Positions 23,677 through 57,640 of a DNA stretch of 64,000 nt are shown in pieces. Each line of letters starts with the position of its first letter. Position 1 is the stretch's first letter. The translations under genes were made by a program, and so were the position numbers. Below the pieces are notes generated by a model that was not told the origin of the DNA, made no database searches, and saw only the letters and a list, made by a program, of their open reading frames with translations. Source of the DNA: Nitrosopumilus sp. (GTDB lineage: Archaea > Thermoproteota > Nitrososphaeria > Nitrososphaerales > Nitrosopumilaceae); the NCBI GenBank assembly GCA_965203315.1, contig OZ241857.1, positions 1,152,001 to 1,216,000 on the forward strand, read 5' to 3'.

Positions 23677-25179
23677 TTATATGCTAATTATACCGTTTTC
23701 GAGTAGAAACGTTATACTTTGAAGAAATGTAGCATCATCGATCTTCTCTTGTGCCCACCATAGAGCGTTTGTTCGTATCCATGGTGGTATATCACCCGCA
23801 TAATCAGTTGTATCAGATGGTACATTCAGTACAATTACATTATCTTGTATCAGATATTGAATCGCTGCAAGAAATGTAGCATCATCGATCTTCTCTTGTG
23901 CCCACCATAGAGCGCTCTGTTTTATCCAAGATGGAATCATAGTTGTGCGATCAAATATGACTGGAATTGTAGTTGTTGCAAGCGGATTGCCATCAATATT
24001 CTTAAAGGTTAGATTCACGACGCCAGAGATATTGTCAGGTATGACAAATGATGCAGTGGTGTGTTCTTGACGCGAGTTTGTACTGGTACCACTCTGCGTG
24101 TATATTGTTGTGCTGTCCTGAGTAACATCTAGTGTATAGTCTGTAGCAACTGGTCTACCTTTGAGAAATACATCGGTTATGTCAAAAGACAAGACTGCTT
24201 TAGAGTTGTGGCGTAGATCTTGTGGTTCCCAAGAGAGGAGAATTCGAAATTGACCGTTCTCAGTAACCGAACTTAGATGTGGATAGTTACGGTCTGGTGT
24301 GATAACAAAACTCATGTCGTCACTCTTTGTGCCGTTCTCCAAAACTCGTAACAACTCTTTCTGGTATATGGTAAAGTGAACAGTTCTAGGATCAGTGAAA
24401 AAGTCATCCACTGCGACTACATTCTCAGAGAGTTGTAGATCATTTACATACATTATAAATCCCGATGAGAGCATGTCGCCGAATGATGTTGGTGTTGAAA
24501 ACTCGATATGGACAACATCTGTTCTATCTATGTTAGATTCAGTCAACTCGAATGGCATTGTAAATTCGATTCGTTTGTCATCTGCGTTGTAATCAAAGTT
24601 TGAGAGCTCGTCATAGTATGTAACTAGATCTATGTATTGGTCTCCAAAGTTAGGATCGTCTATGGTGTGACGTGTACTCTGTGCAATAGATATCCCAGAA
24701 TTGAATATGAGAGGATCGTCTAGTATATCGTAACTATTTGCCGTAGTAATCTTAACATCAAACTTGTATAGGCCACCTTTGGCGAGATCTGTACCTCGTA
24801 TATCAAATGTCTTCGCTTCGAGACCAAATAGAGAGCCAAATAGATCGCGTTCACGTTCAGTTATAGATATAGAGTCGACACTCTCAGAGATGAAGTTAAA
24901 GGTTATAGAACCACTGTCTGCTTTAAACTCTCTCTCAAAGAGAAACTCGTCTCCACGTTCTGAACGAATCTCAAAGGTTACATCTCGAAGAGTTACCTTT
25001 GAGTCAAAATCGATCAGAGATATTGTAAACTGTTGTGTATCATTTGTGGTCGATGAGTTTATCTCGAGGGTTACAGTCTTGCCATCTAGTTCGGCATTGA
25101 TCGCTTCGCTACCAATTCCATGACCATGTACAGTTCCAAACGTGATAGATACTATTACAAGTAAAAAGAGTGTCTTCAA
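23677..25179 (-). CDS. Secreted protein, predicted mature N-terminus HGIG, C-terminal IPxWIK..WW repeats
   Basis: Signal peptide VHG|HGIG; two ALWWAQEKIDDATFL repeats. Confidence 0.8.
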   Translation of the reverse strand: MKTLFLLVIVSITFGTVHGHGIGSEAINAELDGKTVTLEINSSTTNDTQQFTISLIDFDSKVTLRDVTFEIRSERGDEFLFEREFKADSGSITFNFISESVDSISITERERDLFGSLFGLEAKTFDIRGTDLAKGGLYKFDVKITTANSYDILDDPLIFNSGISIAQSTRHTIDDPNFGDQYIDLVTYYDELSNFDYNADDKRIEFTMPFELTESNIDRTDVVHIEFSTPTSFGDMLSSGFIMYVNDLQLSENVVAVDDFFTDPRTVHFTIYQKELLRVLENGTKSDDMSFVITPDRNYPHLSSVTENGQFRILLSWEPQDLRHNSKAVLSFDITDVFLKGRPVATDYTLDVTQDSTTIYTQSGTSTNSRQEHTTASFVIPDNISGVVNLTFKNIDGNPLATTTIPVIFDRTTMIPSWIKQSALWWAQEKIDDATFLAAIQYLIQDNVIVLNVPSDTTDYAGDIPPWIRTNALWWAQEKIDDATFLQSITFLLENGIISI

Positions 25180-32505: not shown

Positions 32506-32764
32506 GTGCTATACAACGATCTCTTCGATTTACACGTACTATGTTTTACAAGACTTTTTTTCTAAAAGTGTTTCCAAAGTCTCGGTACTTTTTCTATAAA
32601 ATTCCACCTCAATGTAAATCAAAGAGAACCTTGTCCAATAGTATTGAAATTACTAGTTTAGAATTTACTACATTTATCTAACTTGAATGAGATAAATTTA
32701 CAGTCGTACTTTTCGGCGTATTACATAAAAATCATTTAAATTCTGGTGTAGGCACGTAATTGTA

Positions 32765-33656
32765 GTGGCAACAAGAAAATTAGACCGGAGAGAGATATTG
32801 GAAATTATATCACAAAGGCAAAATGGTACCAAGTTATCTGTAATAGCAACTCAATTTAGCGTCACTCCACAAAGAGTATGTCAAATATATTCACACTATC
32901 TCGAGACTGGTTCCGCACCAACTCTAAAGAAGACTGGACGACCAAGCAAAGAGCCTACAAAAAAAGAGATTCGATTGGTAAAGAAAGCATACAATCGTAA
33001 ACCTCAAGGCATGGTCTATCTTGCAAGGCGTATGCGTAATTCTAATATACATATAAGCTATAATACAGTACGAAAAATAATGATCGCCGAAGGCTTTGTA
33101 ACTCCAGCACCTGGAAGGAGAAAACGTCGCAGTTAGGTTCGTTTTGAGAGGAGATACTCTAACGCCATGTGGCATGTAGGCTGACACATAATATCTGACT
33201 CAAGATGGAACTCTACCTGATTTGCTACATAGACGATGCTTCTAGATGCATCACGGGTTTTGGGTCTTTAAACATGCAACATCAGCCAACGCAGTCAGTG
33301 TGTTGAGAAAAGCTATCAAAAAGTTTGGCGTACCGGCACAGATACTATCTGATCGTGGAATATAATTTACATCTGCTAAAAAACCAAAGAACGGGCGTAA
33401 AATTACATTATTTGAAGCAGAATTAAGCAAACGAAAAATAAAACAAATACTTGCAAGTCATCACCAGACCAATAACAAGTTGGAGAGATTCTTTGGGACA
33501 TTTGAATCAGAGATTAAACATTCCAATGGTATAATGTCATACATCAATTACTAAAACAAAGACAGACTTTATTTCTCACTAGATGTCAATAATAGTGAAG
33601 TACCTTTGATTGCATTTAAAGCAAAACGTGCCAGTGCTGAAATTAGAAATAATTAA
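32765..33656 (+). pseudogene. Decayed IS481-like transposase
   Basis: HTH ORF ends at RRKRRS*; reading on gives VRFERRYSNAMWHV, YIDDASR, QILSDRG, KLERFF with stops and frameshifts. Confidence 0.8.
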
Positions 33657-33683
33657 CTGTGCAAACTAAAATTATGGTGAATT

Positions 33684-34541
33684 TCAATGATTTTTATGTA
33701 ATACAGTCTTACTTTTCGTGGAATAATCCCTTCTAAGTAGACCTGTGGCCTTGGCGACCAGCGTTCCTGCTAGTAGACCCAGAGATAACAGTACAATTGT
33801 TCCTGCGGGAGCAATATTAAATATGTATGACAGTATTATTCCTACAACAACAGAAGAGACAGAATATGTAATAGATATAAGAACAGTTTGTTTGAATCCA
33901 CGACCATAAATTATTGCAGTAACATTTGGTATTACAAATAATGAAGATATCAACAATACTCCTATTAGTTGAATAGAAGTAACAACTGTTATACCAGCGA
34001 TGAAGATCAGCAGATAGTTGAGATATTTAACATTAATACCGCTGGCCTTTGCTTGCTCTTCGTTAAATGTAGAGTATAATAGTTGTCTACGAAATACCAA
34101 CATCGTTATCAATATTATTCCTACCAGTGGCAAGACCATTAGAGCATCGTTAATGCCAACAAGCAATATACTGCCAAATAGAAAACTAAAGATATCAATT
34201 GAAAATCCACCTTGTAATCCAATTATTACAAGTCCTATTGCTATCCCCGAAGACAATAGTATAGCTACTGCCGCATCACCAGAGATGTCGAATCTCTCTC
34301 GAACTTTGGTTATGGTTAATGCACTTGCAATTGCGACTATATATGCTGCCCAAATTGGGTATATGCCAGCCATCAGACCAAATGCAATTCCACCAAATGA
34401 AGAGTGAGCCATCGCGTCACCAAATAGTGAGTACCTACGTAAAACTAGAAACATTCCAACTACAGAACATAGAACAGCAATGGCGACGCCAGACACTAGC
34501 GCGCGTTGCATAAATCCAAACGTTAGTATCTCAAAGGACAT
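33684..34541 (-). CDS. znuB: Zn/Mn ABC transporter permease
   Basis: GDAMAH, FLFGSIL, GVLLISS motifs. Confidence 0.88.
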   Translation of the reverse strand: MSFEILTFGFMQRALVSGVAIAVLCSVVGMFLVLRRYSLFGDAMAHSSFGGIAFGLMAGIYPIWAAYIVAIASALTITKVRERFDISGDAAVAILLSSGIAIGLVIIGLQGGFSIDIFSFLFGSILLVGINDALMVLPLVGIILITMLVFRRQLLYSTFNEEQAKASGINVKYLNYLLIFIAGITVVTSIQLIGVLLISSLFVIPNVTAIIYGRGFKQTVLISITYSVSSVVVGIILSYIFNIAPAGTIVLLSLGLLAGTLVAKATGLLRRDYSTKSKTVLHKNH

Positions 34542-53925: not shown

Positions 53926-54091
53926 CCAGATATAGATTTAATCTGCATATGATTGATCAGTCTGTCTTTGTAGTTCTGGAAGCTCTTGTGTATTGGAAAG
54001 CAGATTCAGTCTATGACTTGGTATGGACTTTGGAAGCCAAGATGAGTGTGAAAACAGTAAAGCAATATTGTCAAGATGAGGTGTTAGTGAT

Positions 54092-54268
54092 ATGAGTATG
54101 TTTGATGGTTTACTTGGAAATAAGGATAAGTGTGTATGTGGAAATGAGTATGATTATATTATAATTTCTAAAAATTTTGGAGTGCCTATTTGTATCTGTG
54201 ATGATTGTTTATTGGAACTTATTTCAGTTAGGCTTAAGAGTAGAGAGGATAAGGATCGATATGACTAG
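54092..54268 (+). CDS. Small Cys-containing protein, 58 aa
   Basis: MSMFDGLLGNKDKCVCGNEY..ICICDDCLLEL; below the ORF-track cutoff. Confidence 0.55.
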   Translation: MSMFDGLLGNKDKCVCGNEYDYIIISKNFGVPICICDDCLLELISVRLKSREDKDRYD

Positions 54269-54381
54269 AGATATGGGATATATGATTCTGCTATCTGCAT
54301 TTGTGTCTATTCTAGTCTATGAATTACTTTACAGAAAGAATTGAGATGATGAGGAGTGGGATTCTAGTTTAGGTGTTTAGT

Positions 54382-54639
54382 ATGGGTTTTGAAGAAGATG
54401 TTCTACGAGAGCTTAGTTCTATTCAAAAGCGTCTTAGTCGTATTGAAAGTGAAATTAACGAAAAACATTGTGAATTTGAAAAACATTGTGAATTTCAACC
54501 AATTTTGAACGATTGTAAATTTCATGAATGGGATAGTTGTAAATTTGAAAAACATTGTGATTTTGAACGACAGGATTGTAAATTTGAGAGACAGGATTGT
54601 AGATATGAAAGACCTGATGGTTGTAGGTATAATGGATAG
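54382..54639 (+). CDS. Small protein with short coiled coil and tandem C-x-F/Y repeats
   Basis: EKHCEF EKHCEF..DCKF..SCKF EKHCDF ERQDCKF ERQDCRY..GCRY. Confidence 0.65.
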   Translation: MGFEEDVLRELSSIQKRLSRIESEINEKHCEFEKHCEFQPILNDCKFHEWDSCKFEKHCDFERQDCKFERQDCRYERPDGCRYNG

Positions 54640-54867
54640 TTGGTAAGATGGTATGCAGGTGTCATTTACTTAACAGATTATCAATGTTCTATTGAATCAT
54701 ATCTTACCAAGTCTCTCTATCTTTCTACCAAAATACGCTATGGTTCTAATCATGCCAGATATGGTATCATCAAGTTCAGTCAAGGGATCTGGCTTGGCTT
54801 TACGTTTAGGCATGATGGTTATAGTATCAATCTAGTATATATGGTGTTTGAGTATGGGCTTGATTTA

Positions 54868-55068
54868 ATGAGTGTGAAAAGTAAGATAGTTAGTGGGTTC
54901 ATTATTACAAGTTTTGTATTTCTAATCATGTGGATATTTTGGATGATATATGCTTTGGAAAACTATGAAGCTGATATGGGTTTTACTGTTATGAGTTTGA
55001 TTATTCCTATTGGAATAATGTGTTTGATTAGTATTGGATTTGTGATTTATAGAGTTGTCAAAAGATGA
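54868..55068 (+). CDS. Small 2-TM membrane protein
   Basis: MSVKSKIVSG start; two hydrophobic helices. The upstream extension in the ORF track is probably non-coding. Confidence 0.6.
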   Translation: MSVKSKIVSGFIITSFVFLIMWIFWMIYALENYEADMGFTVMSLIIPIGIMCLISIGFVIYRVVKR

Positions 55069-55259
55069 GTGCTATTGGTTGGGTTTTGTTGTTTGTTATA
55101 CCGTTTTTGTTTATTTATGTTTTGTATAATGCATTGGGTTCTGATAAGAAAGGTGGTTTCTACTGTTGGAATTGTGGTTTACAGTTTGATTGTATTGTAG
55201 ATGTTTGTTCTAGGTGTGGTTCTGTTAGAATAAAAAAGATAAAAAAGGGATTAAGGTGA
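55065..55259 (+). CDS. Small TM + zinc-ribbon protein
   Basis: N-terminal TM, CWNC..CSRC; ATGA overlap with the previous gene. Confidence 0.65.
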   Translation: MSAIGWVLLFVIPFLFIYVLYNALGSDKKGGFYCWNCGLQFDCIVDVCSRCGSVRIKKIKKGLR

Positions 55260-56039
55260 TTCTAACTCCTCAATTTTCTTTGTTGCGTTGTTAAGTTCTT
55301 GAGTAAGTTTCTCTATGGTTTGTTCATGTTCAGATATGGTTTGTAGTTGTTGAATAGAAGTTGTGTTCATGATTTGATACAGTCTTTGCAGTTCAGATAG
55401 TTCAGTCTTGGTTTGATTTAGTTCATTCGTGGTCCTTTTCTTGTCATCATTACAAGCTCCGTGTTTGTTCTTTAGTTCCTTGTTCTTTTCTTTGAGTTTC
55501 TGTATCTGTTCATCATTGGATTCTGTTGTTCTATCTGGTTGATTAGATGGTGTCAAGTTGAATGTTCTTGCTATCAGGTTTATGATTCGTTCATCAGTAT
55601 TTTCATGATGGACTATGATTCTCTTGGTTATTGAACTCCATTCTCCATCAACAATACAGTTTTTAGGTAAAAATTTGAATTCATGACTTCCTATATCTTT
55701 TGCAATGAGTAGGATATATCCATCTGGTTCTAGATATTTTTTATTAGCATTATACTCATCGGCGGTTTTAGTTTTAATGTTATCTCTGTTTAAAACTCTA
55801 TAATCAGTTTGAATAATCTCACTAGTAGAGATAGTGTTGCCTTCTTGTATATACAATGGTTCATTACTAGTGTTGATGAGTTTTAGAGAGTCATGTAGAG
55901 CTATCTCTATATCACTATTATCACAATTCTCAAATATCTCATTTAAACTGTATTCGTGTATCATTGCTTCAACATCATCAACTAGACCTATAACTCCAAT
56001 AAGAGATACTGCAGTTAGGACTATTGGCACTATGTTCAT
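55251..56039 (-). CDS. Secreted protein with coiled-coil tail, related to 41144-43504
   Basis: Signal AVSLIGVIGLVDDVEA vs AVSIMGVIGLVDNVYA; tail KLTQELNNATKKIEELESP vs KLTQELSEAKKKIEELESP. Confidence 0.8.
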   Translation of the reverse strand: MNIVPIVLTAVSLIGVIGLVDDVEAMIHEYSLNEIFENCDNSDIEIALHDSLKLINTSNEPLYIQEGNTISTSEIIQTDYRVLNRDNIKTKTADEYNANKKYLEPDGYILLIAKDIGSHEFKFLPKNCIVDGEWSSITKRIIVHHENTDERIINLIARTFNLTPSNQPDRTTESNDEQIQKLKEKNKELKNKHGACNDDKKRTTNELNQTKTELSELQRLYQIMNTTSIQQLQTISEHEQTIEKLTQELNNATKKIEELESP

Positions 56040-56079
56040 TGATTATACCCAGATTGGATAGTAAATAAGCCTTGTTTTT

Positions 56080-56560
56080 TGGTATTTGGTACCAAGTTGG
56101 TACTATAACTAGTACTAAACTGGTACCAAGATTCTAGGCATTGTAAAGCAGTTCTGGTACCAAGTTGGTACCATTGAGCTCATGTTTGTGAGCTCAATGT
56201 CTAAATCGTGCCTAAAAACATGAGCTCAAAGTTGAGCTCAATGTGAGCTCATAAACATGAGCTCAATGACTGTTGAGCTAAAATGTTGAGCTAAAAGCCT
56301 GGATTCGTGCCTAATCTGTTGAGCTAAGATTGAGCTAAATGTTGAGCTAACTGCAGATTATCGATATGGATATCATTATGGATATCTATATGGATATCAC
56401 AAAGTAGGCATGAAAAACCATGATATCCAAATATGGATATCAGTATGATATCCAAGTTTACCCATTGGGTATAATCTATACCCAAGATCTACCCAAATTA
56501 TACCCAAAAATCTAGGCATGGTTTACCCAAATTATACCCAAGTTTTACCCAATGGGTAAA
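56080..56560. repeat. Array of five ~80-105 bp units, each a TAGGCA core embedded in unit-specific repeated 8-mers
   Basis: Motifs TGGTACCA, TGAGCTCA, TTAGCTCA, GGATATCA, TATACCCA; cores at 56135(+), 56209(-), 56308(-), 56405(+), 56513(+). Confidence 0.9.
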
Positions 56561-56875
56561 TTAGATTATAGGAATACTCTAACCCAGTCCTTCTTGCCTT
56601 GCCTAAAGAGATATTAGATGAGATTTCCTATTAGGTATGGTTGATACCTTGTGTGGAAACTTGGTATTGACTGCAAGAAGGACTGGTTATGGGGGCAACC
56701 TCATAATCTACTTGATTCTGGTGTTTTGTGTAAAAGATTGTGATATGGTAGATTCTAGGCACGAAATTGGTTGGAAAGGCTTGATTTGGTTTATATGTAG
56801 AAAGTTCCTAAATAGCCTTGTCTAATTTTCTAAAAAATTATGTTGCTATTGTATATCATAGTTTGAATTGGTACA

Positions 56876-57640
56876 TCATCTCTCTACAGGTAGCTCTAGT
56901 CTATTTCCCCACTCGCCCCAAGAACCGAGATATACTCGTACGTTCTCAAATCCAAGATACTTTAACGTAAGAAAAGAGTTTGCGGCACGATATGCTCCTT
57001 GGCAGTATGTTACAATATCTGCGTCCTGTGATATATTATACAGTTTAGACAAAGAACTTGTATCCAAGAGAGTTCCGTCTTGTGTAAGATTGAGATTCCA
57101 GTCTATGTTGATCGAGTTTGGTATATGACCTCCTCGAGCTGCGCGAATTATACTGCCTGTATATTCTGCGCGTGATCTCGCGTCGATTATAATCAGATTG
57201 GGATCGTCTCGGATCTCTTCAAAACCGATAATCAGTTTAGGGTTGGTCTGTCCTTCAAATTTGGATGGACGGTATGGGTTGCCGGTCTGTTCTATGGGCA
57301 GATGAGCCCTTTGCCATGCTTGGATTCCACCATTGAGCATTGCAGTATTTTCATTTGACATGTACATCGCCATCCAAACTCCACGAGCAGCAAGCATTCC
57401 AGATGTATTATCATAAAAGACGGTCTTCCTGTGATCAGCCATGCCAACAAAAGAGAAGAGAGTTCTTGTCTGCTGATCAAAGTTTGTAATTCCATTACTA
57501 GTTGTGTCAAACCAATGAAACGCAAATAGATCTAGATGTATTGCGCCAGGTATATGACCGCTAGCATACTCTTTAAACGATCTTGTATCGACTATTAGAG
57601 GATCGTCGAGTCTCTGAAGCTCATCTACAGATATTAGCAT
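56876..57640 (-). CDS. Tandem-rhodanese sulfurtransferase
   Basis: GHIPGA, DARS..EY, YCQGAYRA, YLGSWGEW. Confidence 0.92.
   Translation of the reverse strand: MLISVDELQRLDDPLIVDTRSFKEYASGHIPGAIHLDLFAFHWFDTTSNGITNFDQQTRTLFSFVGMADHRKTVFYDNTSGMLAARGVWMAMYMSNENTAMLNGGIQAWQRAHLPIEQTGNPYRPSKFEGQTNPKLIIGFEEIRDDPNLIIIDARSRAEYTGSIIRAARGGHIPNSINIDWNLNLTQDGTLLDTSSLSKLYNISQDADIVTYCQGAYRAANSFLTLKYLGFENVRVYLGSWGEWGNRLELPVER

Follow-up and report, generated by a model that had tools for sequence, protein, structure and literature searches.

The window analysed here is a 64,000-nucleotide stretch of a Nitrosopumilus sp. genome (C1:1152001-1216000 of the source genome G000), and the element in question is an array of five units, each built from copies of its own 8-mer around a constant TAGGCA core. 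The genome comprises 2.47 Mb in seven contigs with 38.6-42.9% GC per contig, and the genes of the window are typical of an ammonia-oxidising archaeon, including an ammonium transporter, V-type ATPase subunits and a rhodanese. A gap without genes extends over 56040-56875; its right border is the stop codon of the rhodanese gene (56876-57640, minus strand), and its left 480 bases hold the five-unit array. The gap forms the end of a lineage-specific insertion that contains small open reading frames (ORFs), a 262-residue ORF and the array. The GC content of the insertion is 32-37%, compared to 43-48% in the flanks. In at least 6 of 30 loci in relatives, the end of the V-type ATPase subunit I gene lies within ~100 nucleotides (nt) of the rhodanese stop codon. 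A repeat finder detected no direct repeats flanking the insertion, and the small ORFs match no Pfam or PHROG family. By sequence, the array sits in what is evidently a horizontally acquired island. The features of the locus are as follows (window coordinates; R, resultant length).

53926..56875, no strand: lineage-specific insertion of 2,950 bp, from the V-type ATPase subunit I gene to the rhodanese gene
55251..56039, minus: 262-residue ORF, start codon facing the array, N-terminal hydrophobic segment and C-terminal coiled coil
56040..56079, minus: 5' flank and core promoter region of the 262-residue gene, similar to the upstream region of a paralogue on contig C5
56080..56174, plus: unit 1 (U1), four copies of TGGTACCA plus the variants TGGTACTA and TAGTACTA; core at 56135-56140
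56087, 56098, 56110, 56121, 56155 and 56166, plus: starts of the U1 8-mers; best period 11.30, R 0.99
56172..56270, minus: unit 2 (U2), six copies of TGAGCTCA; core at 56209-56214, TGCCTA on the plus strand
56175, 56189, 56221, 56233, 56244 and 56258, minus: starts of the U2 8-mers, from the phasing analysis
56268..56352, minus: unit 3 (U3), five copies of TGAGCTAA (reverse complement TTAGCTCA), all direct; core TGCCTA at 56308-56313
56358..56456, plus: unit 4 (U4), six copies of TGGATATC or GATATCCA; core at 56405-56410
56454..56562, plus: unit 5 (U5), seven copies of T[ACT]TACCCA plus two inverted TGGGTA[TA]A at the ends; core at 56513-56518
56563..56574, plus: degenerate extended core AGATTATAGGAA, 83% to AGATTCTAGGCA, no repeated words
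56584..56686, minus: core TGCCTA at 56600-56605, enclosed by the arms of a perfect 14-nt inverted repeat (56584-56597/56673-56686), no repeated words, fold z score -5.9
56750..56763, plus: core at 56756 within AGATTCTAGGCA, the same 12-mer as in U1, then CG; no clear repeated words

Direct reading and repeat finders revealed 32 copies of five unit-specific 8-mers (iterons, or words) in 56080-56562, with one TAGGCA per unit. A first-pass annotation of this DNA had described five abutting units, each with an 8-mer of its own around a shared core, and both the positions and the orientations it gave are borne out. In core orientation the words read TGGTACCA, TGAGCTCA, TTAGCTCA, TG(G)ATATC(C)A and T[ACT]TACCCA, all of which fit T-N5-CA. 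The words of U2 and U3 (TGAGCTCA and TTAGCTCA) are one base apart in all copies, and a one-base difference also separates ATATCCA of U4 from ATACCCA of U5. A MAFFT alignment of the five units misplaced U4.

The units share a common plan and differ in the arrangement of their words. U1 has the slots X X X X C (empty) X X in core orientation, where X is TGGTACCA and C the core, which lies within the 12-mer AGATTCTAGGCA at 56129-56140. U2 is inverted relative to U1, and its word occurs at 20 sites in the genome, six of them within the unit. U3 consists of direct repeats alone and has no dyad symmetry. U4 has three copies of TGGATATC(A) upstream of the core, while its downstream copies run inverted, direct and inverted. 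U5 keeps an exact 11-bp period in which the core occupies one repeat slot, leaving a 23-bp gap, and its ends are closed by the palindromic head-to-head pairs TTTACCCATTGGGTA and TTTACCCAATGGGTA. The distance between the last upstream 8-mer and TAGGCA, annotated as 6 nt with 5-6 in U4, measures 6, 6, 6, 5 (U4, in a 9-mer reading) and 6 nt from U1 to U5; YG follows the core in four of the five units, with the exception of U1, again as annotated. Beyond the array, the two extra cores at 56600 (minus) and 56756 (plus) and the 14-nt inverted repeat are present as described, the 12-mer-bearing core lying ~115 nt beyond the rhodanese stop codon. The seven cores have the orientations + - - + + - + and are spaced 74-156 bp apart. 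Inverted ends had been put forward as a property of several units; they are found in U2, where the terminal 25 nt are 96% complementary, and in the palindromic ends of U5, and they fail as a shared property at U3. The fold z scores are -4.5 for U1, -10.0 for U2, -3.9 for U4 and -2.0 (weak) for U5, compared to -0.51 for U3.

The iterons are phased along the DNA. A single period of 11.15 bp fits all 32 copies over 480 bp with an R of 0.73, compared to a maximum of 0.61 in 500 random placements, and the best period of the individual units ranges from 10.95 to 11.55 bp with an R of 0.82-0.99. The core follows the same register. The gap that holds it corresponds to three periods in U1 to U4 (31-34 bp) and to two in U5 (23 bp). 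If the core is read as the 8-mer NNTAGGCA, its distance from the last upstream iteron is 4 nt in every unit, the same as a usual spacer. The slot scheme of a unit is X X X (X) C, an empty slot in U1 to U4, and X X (X). In U5, a repeat finder places the core segment in register with the repeats, so that TAGGCA aligns with TACCCA.

Words and spacers are very differently constrained. In 27 copies aligned on the iteron start, the eight word columns were set against five spacer columns, two before the word and three after it: mismatches to the unit consensus occupy 6 of 216 iteron cells, in contrast to 55 of 135 spacer cells (Fisher p 3e-20), a p-value overstated because the frame was chosen after the data had been seen, though the contrast is still too large for frame choice to explain. 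Spacer length is not fixed either and ranges from 3 to 6 nt. Almost invariant words among scrambled spacers fit selection on the words and not recent slippage, and argue that something sequence-specific reads the 8-mers. By contrast, intergenic tandem repeats elsewhere in the genome repeat whole units almost perfectly, as expected from slippage.

Neither the words nor the cores are attributable to base composition. Eighteen canonical 8-mers occur at least four times in 56080-56562, compared to a maximum of one in 1000 dinucleotide-preserving shuffles. TAGGCA/TGCCTA occurs seven times in 56080-56830, with a mean of 0.55 and a maximum of 4 in 1000 such shuffles, and the window as a whole holds seven TAGGCAYG compared to 2.1 expected, a number reached in 0 of 100 shuffles. 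Sequencing runs of four studies contain all or part of the stretch. Short-read contigs from three studies (X1, X4 and X5) span 55981/55982 to 57700 or more with 0 differences, 0 gaps and no joint, and one X4 contig extends across the whole 2.5 kb compared. The array is thus a real sequence and no assembly artefact; the X1, X4 and X5 runs may stem from one strain, and one of them may be the source of the assembly, so that their agreement says nothing on conservation.

Comparable arrays were searched for in the source genome, in its relatives and in several sequence collections. Across the source genome the units match only themselves; where TAGGCA stands elsewhere beside repeated 7-mers, the repeats are tandem or coding ones or the case is weak, and the unit layout is never present. 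DNA searches of 40 relatives gave two marginal matches of 35-45 nt alone, both outside the units; 30 rhodanese loci located by synteny in 60 sampled genus genomes contain no iteron array; and in all 151 genus genomes searched by DNA the rhodanese part alone was matched, with at most 76% identity over short pieces and at most 68% over the gene. The absence of homologues says little on age or function, because no close relative of this lineage has been sequenced. Cores paired at a distance of 75-105 bp were found in 22 of 301 family genomes (including one match in the unpublished G296, which supports no conclusion here), compared to ~10 with a reversed control, which is about the chance level, and none of these genomes other than G000 has words around the core. 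Two of the candidates, G077 (48 bp x 16) and G154 (~100 bp x 3), were rejected as plain tandem repeats that merely include the motif. At G077:C1:743699-744378 (L038:1463-2240), between two ORFs, the G077 array consists of 16 identical 48-bp units with TAGGCACGAA and a GTCTTC-N7-GAAGAC palindrome, and the ORF downstream resembles, by eye, an archaeal-type ATPase; its core match is probably coincidental.

Beyond the family, the U2 pattern was found at 0 viral, 58 metagenome and 30 genome loci, none of them related, and none of the seven low-GC or TAGGCA-bearing loci displayed is unit-like; the 21 viral loci with the U5 pattern are not unit-like either, and blastn against phage and plasmid records gave no match to the array. 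The collections scanned may leave out the records of the source genome itself. Unrelated phage contigs (e.g. L077, L084 and L087) share the word TACCCAA, which is repeated there every 11 bp with 4-nt spacers that vary, in DNA that looks non-coding by eye; such layouts therefore recur. Contig C3 was considered as a possible plasmid with related arrays and discarded, as it has few long ORFs and nothing in common with the words of the window. It carries two long arrays of 18-bp units (C3:3359-4332 and 24126-24600) with a constant GCTTACAAAGT and a variable hexamer (TGCATA, TGCCTG, TGCCTA, TACCTA and others). Elsewhere in the genome, five (T)GTACA words at 9-10-bp spacing, of one kind only, lie at C1:615775-615815 in a gap upstream of a long minus-strand ORF. 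No avoidance of GGTACC, GAGCTC, GATATC or AGCT, which would hint at restriction sites, was seen. Literature searches on related terms returned no report of such a cis-element, and we know of none of this kind in ammonia-oxidising archaea.

The first-pass annotation had reckoned with comparable units elsewhere and with variation among strains or reads. None of the former was found in the genome, the 151 genus and 301 family genomes, or the viral, metagenome, genome, phage and plasmid collections searched, and none of the latter appeared among the runs, as judged from the contigs of the three studies. Most of what it had named as evidence against its own proposal was thus observed.

Our tentative reading, to which we give somewhat less than an even chance, is that the units form a stack of assembly sites in phase with the helix, at which DNA-binding proteins of defined sequence specificity would bind cooperatively, together with a shared central factor. 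In each unit, the five to nine copies of its own 8-mer, lying ~11.2 bp or one helical turn apart, would offer one face of the DNA to a cooperatively binding protein. One fixed slot is taken by the constant word NNTAGGCA, with an unoccupied slot after it in four units, and this word could be bound by a shared factor with an organising role in the complex, e.g. an architectural or bending protein. The DNA would then be wrapped, or coated on one face, with the second factor at its centre. As the words are related, all fitting T-N5-CA, we infer five related binding specificities or one protein family, co-evolved with its sites.

The array may be the upstream control region of the adjoining gene for the putatively secreted coiled-coil protein of 262 residues, which belongs to a multi-copy family with several paralogues in the source genome. 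The upstream region of this gene is similar to that of the C5 paralogue (C5:306904-306942 at 95%; 45 nt at 93% in a second comparison), and the array starts exactly where this promoter similarity ends. One TGGTATCA lies upstream of the C5 paralogue at the corresponding position, a weak hint that the U1 word may belong to the promoter type of this gene family. Alternatively, the array may comprise left-over or working partition- or operator-type cis-sites of mobile elements.

Several results weigh against these assembly sites. None of the five words forms a cluster elsewhere in the genome, the sole pair within 45 bp being a GGATATCA pair on C5, so that the putative binding proteins have no other clustered targets. 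TAGGCAYG occurs at 83 sites genome-wide, close to our own composition-based expectation and hence without enrichment. The nearest relative has at most 68% nucleotide identity in the rhodanese gene, and the array is a singleton. Upstream of two other paralogues of the 262-residue gene, read by eye, there is no array. The island ORFs have no Pfam or PHROG match suggestive of DNA binding; RHH_1 has no match in the genome, a search that left other ribbon-helix-helix (RHH) and winged-helix families aside; and no partition ATPase or par-like operon was found beside the array. In addition, a generating mechanism that itself writes identical words could still account for them.

A bolder extension, which we regard as speculative and improbable, is that the chromosome keeps a 'library' of five centromere- or origin-like sites of different specificity around one common host-factor site, which soak up partition, replication or packaging proteins from five kinds of mobile elements and so destabilise these elements, with incompatibility serving as a heritable defence, or that the array is a multi-input nucleoprotein switch acting on the gene beside it. 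In both cases, duplication of a unit and concerted change of its words would create new specificities, as the pairs U2/U3 and U4/U5 suggest.

Within the island, an 88-residue ORF (54373-54639) matches no family, and the C-terminal two thirds of its product consist of ~8 short repeats of the Cys-x-Phe/Tyr-Glu-Lys/Arg type, encoded by 18-21-bp tandem repeats. Directly downstream of the C5 paralogue, at C5 ~308100-308440 (L004:2700-3039), a run of ten G falls within a reading frame resembling, by eye, the start of a DNA methyltransferase, and this tract could be phase-variable. The first 17,739 bases are identical in contigs C1 and C5, owing either to a long repeat at the ends of the contigs or to duplication during assembly.

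Compared to known systems, the proposed assembly sites most resemble the centromere-type sites of plasmids. In the parts of PMC5016525 that treat them, parC of plasmid R1 is a set of tandem repeats that can be split in two with a promoter in the middle, and tubC is split into two or three blocks. As in the array, the R1 parC (bound by ParR) and tubC (bound by TubR) place short one-turn repeats in two blocks around a central region, and according to the same parts of PMC5016525 these repeats are bound cooperatively into a wrapped complex and double as operators. The array has repeats about one turn apart (10.95-11.55 bp) and, in every unit, a block on either side of the core, with 2-5 copies per block compared to 5+5 in the parC/tubC type. 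It differs in that no par operon, partition NTPase or identifiable centromere-binding protein adjoins it, the island ORFs having no match to ParA, ParM, TubZ or RHH proteins; moreover, its central region has no recognisable promoter, five specificities are stacked head to tail, and the host is an archaeon. As no partition genes were identified beside it, we describe the array as working like a centromere-type site, if the reading is right, and do not call it one.

A second likeness is to the parS of P1 and P7, in which a central IHF site is flanked by plasmid-specific ParB boxes. The array would share with it a central constant site for a host factor and specificity-setting boxes on both arms. 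A host factor that alters how the P1 centromere is recognised is cited in the reference list of PMC5016525. The boxes of parS and of the array are unlike in type and number, no ParB or IHF-like partner is known for the latter, and its TAGGCA is only putatively the site of a bending protein. Arrays of short words read by small dimers side by side are also typical of the met-boxes of MetJ. Similarly, in pSM19035 the omega protein binds direct and inverted heptads alike, in arrays of 7-10 short words occupied by small dimers side by side, as described in the relevant parts of PMC5016525. The omega and MetJ words abut one another at a 7-8-bp period, whereas the array has an ~11-bp period with free spacers, and the genome has no RHH_1 match.

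Among the alternatives to assembly sites, an origin-type function fares best, though we consider it unlikely. Here the units would be iteron origins of plasmids or viruses, or mimics of them, with an initiator on the words and a host factor or nicking enzyme at the core, and they could titrate initiators. The combination of iterons and a constant element fits this logic, as iteron-type plasmid and phage origins also have phased initiator-specific repeats beside host-factor elements, and the array lies in a low-GC acquired island. The iterons of plasmids are typically 17-22 bp long. The words of the array, 8 bp at an 11-bp period, are unlike them; in addition, genes for an initiator, a primase or a helicase are absent from the island, the units show no evident AT-rich element for unwinding, and a row of five gene-less origins would be unusual. 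Nothing resembling the array was seen among the phage, plasmid and viral contigs searched.

A further point in favour of an origin-type function is that the 6-mer TAGGCA/TGCCTA recurs within a non-coding element that is strongly conserved in the genus; this element, here termed the G-string, recalls origin recognition boxes, and its inverted copy lies beside an AT-rich stretch. The two loci concerned are the following.

C1:324010-324200 (L068:4010-4200), direct, inverted, direct: three G-string elements, TGCCTA-N5-TAAACCCCCC and TAGGCA-N7-TAAACCCCCC
C1:1282880-1283170 (L007:2683-2980), inverted arrangement: four TTTCCACTC boxes with GGGGT-type tails, directly upstream of the only cdc6/orc1

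The G-string pattern TGCCTANNNNNTAAACCCCC (20 nt, exact) is present in 62 of the 151 genus genomes, compared to 0 for the reversed control, and the locus was also seen at L051, L053 and L189-L200. In the 34 nt compared, the inverted copies of G000 and G010 are nearly the same, as against an identity of ~66% in the rhodanese gene. The two direct copies are exactly 166 bp apart in G000, G369, G377, G412, G413 and G418, and an inverted copy lies between the direct ones in G000, G002 and G010. In 12 of 14 single-contig genomes the G-string locus lies 0.47-0.50 of a chromosome from the rhodanese gene, which is close to cdc6 in G000. Being roughly opposite the cdc6-side origin, the G-string could therefore be a terminus element or a second origin. 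Its conservation indicates that the 6-mer is part of something functional there, and does not imply a shared reader factor in the array.

The chromosomal origin itself likely lies at C1:1282880-1283170. The only Cdc6_C match of the genome is at C1:1281692, and an extreme of the cumulative GC skew at 1.28 Mb coincides with the cdc6-side boxes, 73 kb from the array. The array was accordingly rejected as a chromosomal origin with origin recognition box elements, since cdc6 and the four TTTCCACTC boxes map to C1:1.2817-1.2832 Mb; it contains a single GTTTCCAC, which is at the chance level (43 in the genome). This separate origin 73 kb away also argues against an origin-type function of the units.

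Recombination or transposition sites, as the first-pass annotation had proposed, appear improbable. TAGGCA would be the crossover or cleavage core, the words arm-type or variable-arm sites, and the array a set of cassette ends. The likeness is to heterobivalent integrase attP sites and the sfx sites of shufflons: a constant 6-nt core with flanking accessory repeats recalls the arm sites of phage attP, and the array shares with these systems a constant short core, accessory or variable flanks and both core orientations, at a spacing of 74-156 bp. Moreover, the source genome is rich in insertion sequence (IS) elements and miniature inverted-repeat transposable elements (MITEs). In contrast to attP and sfx sites, the 11-nt arms around all seven cores lack inverted symmetry, with 2-4 of 11 positions compared to a null mean of 4.8 and a 95th percentile of 7. 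In each of the five units the word is the same to the left and right of the core, which means that crossover there has not mixed the units, and inter-unit exchange at these points is not apparent. A Pfam profile search of the genome gave two Phage_integrase-like matches (C1:412469 and C1:1468056), both more than 250 kb away, and no match to Resolvase. The island lacks flanking direct repeats, its units are single-copy in the genome, and the X1, X4 and X5 contigs show no rearranged joints or alternative forms, which is weak evidence since contigs drop rare variants. The annotation had also stated that the window holds no cognate enzyme; scans of the neighbouring ORFs and genome-wide searches with four Pfam families agree with this for the part of the claim that they cover.

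The second proposal of that annotation, a rolling-circle origin, origin of transfer or HUH nick site, is not supported. U3 and U5 are unable to present the core in a hairpin loop, because there it is flanked by direct repeats, and U3 has a fold z score of -0.5. Such a presentation is possible in U1, U2 and U4, and a hairpin or single-stranded DNA model was set aside as not common to all units. No island ORF has an HUH-type Pfam or PHROG match, and Y1_Tnp has no match in the genome, a search that did not extend to Rep, relaxase and other HUH families.

The units were likewise rejected as MITE or IS ends, as they are single-copy, their words form no clusters elsewhere, and flanking direct repeats are absent. 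They resemble clusters of repetitive extragenic palindromes (REPs), bacterial interspersed mosaic elements (BIMEs) and MITEs in being ~100-bp, partly palindromic units of alternating orientation in an intergenic region of a MITE-rich genome. Compared to such clusters, each unit occurs once, inverted ends are missing from U3, and the genome lacks a Y1 transposase match. TAGGCAYG was also discarded as a genome-wide regulatory motif: its count is at expectation, and many sites fall in coding sequence, in IS promoters or in a ~100-bp MITE, of which 3 of 8 copies have TATGCA instead. A MITE-like element of ~100 bp with terminal inverted repeats (GTATGAYGTT ... AACATCATAC) lies at C1:1123483-1123581 and has ~7 further copies, e.g. 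at C1:9326, C1:1072042, C5:68371, C5:288846 and C6:40890. Several more short repeat families have dozens of copies each, and the genome is unusually rich in MITEs. In the window itself, 32700-33900 is an IS element: after a helix-turn-helix OrfA of 123 residues (32765-33136) comes what looks by eye like an integrase-core (rve-like) frame, interrupted by stops. The genome has related copies of the element at C1:292430, C1:1108216 and C5:143051.

We give little credence to an old, functionless minisatellite, in which an 11-bp tandem repeat diversified by slippage or unequal exchange and TAGGCA is one more variant. The genome does contain many intergenic short-period tandem repeats (e.g. 13 bp x 16 at C1:1264231), one period runs throughout the array, the words of neighbouring units are one substitution apart, and in U5 TAGGCA stands in register with TACCCA. 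Slippage copies the spacer together with the word, however, and here the spacers are near saturation and variable in length while the words hardly vary; nor do the near-perfect whole-unit copies of the other tandem repeats in the genome match this picture. The same core in the same slot after the same 4-nt spacer in five blocks is unexpected from drift.

Non-coding RNA genes are a very unlikely explanation. Under this reading the units would give rise to transcripts in which the words fold into hairpins or are held by an RNA-binding ring protein, in line with the strong predicted folds of U1, U2, U4 and 56580-56690 (z -5.9). U3 is unfolded and U5 weak, and the hairpins are a trivial product of the palindromic words. 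The best Rfam hit (Rfam 15) is microRNA-like and scores 29.5 bits, compared to a gathering score of 85, and the opposite orientations of units would give unrelated RNAs for non-palindromic words. Virus packaging-type sites (cos/pac), in which small terminase subunits read repeats around a cleavage core so that flanking DNA is packaged or terminases are decoyed, are highly improbable: the case for them is by analogy with lambdoid phages, which have cosN in common and differ in cosB, and with the pac site of P1, where hexamer repeats lie on both sides of the cleavage region, and it is countered by the lack of a terminase or capsid gene in the island or the neighbours examined, by the pattern searches of viral contigs (0 for U2, and 21 for U5 without a unit-like layout), and by the lack of a relative of the 262-residue protein in viral contigs.

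Altogether, the observation behind the first-pass annotation is confirmed and sharpened. Its general logic, a conserved activity at the core combined with a variable specificity reading the words, is plausible in view of the invariant words, the scrambled spacers and the fixed slot of the core, while the recombination and rolling-circle mechanisms that it attached to this logic are not supported; its decoy and origin-mimic ideas are neither favoured nor disfavoured by the results. The array presents itself as a singular, phased, multi-specificity set of sites that is apparently under selection and, by analogy, akin to iteron, centromere or operator arrays. It provides 32 sharply defined candidate sites in five related flavours together with a constant partner site, and single units could be used as protein baits. 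If the readers are paralogous proteins, the one-base differences between words would form a natural series for the co-evolution of specificity and target; if the sites titrate proteins of mobile elements, they would represent a new kind of defence. Even if no protein binds, the upkeep of identical words among scrambled spacers would still call for an explanation. Very little is known of DNA recognition, organisation and partition in ammonia-oxidising archaea, and it is to these processes that the array may give access.

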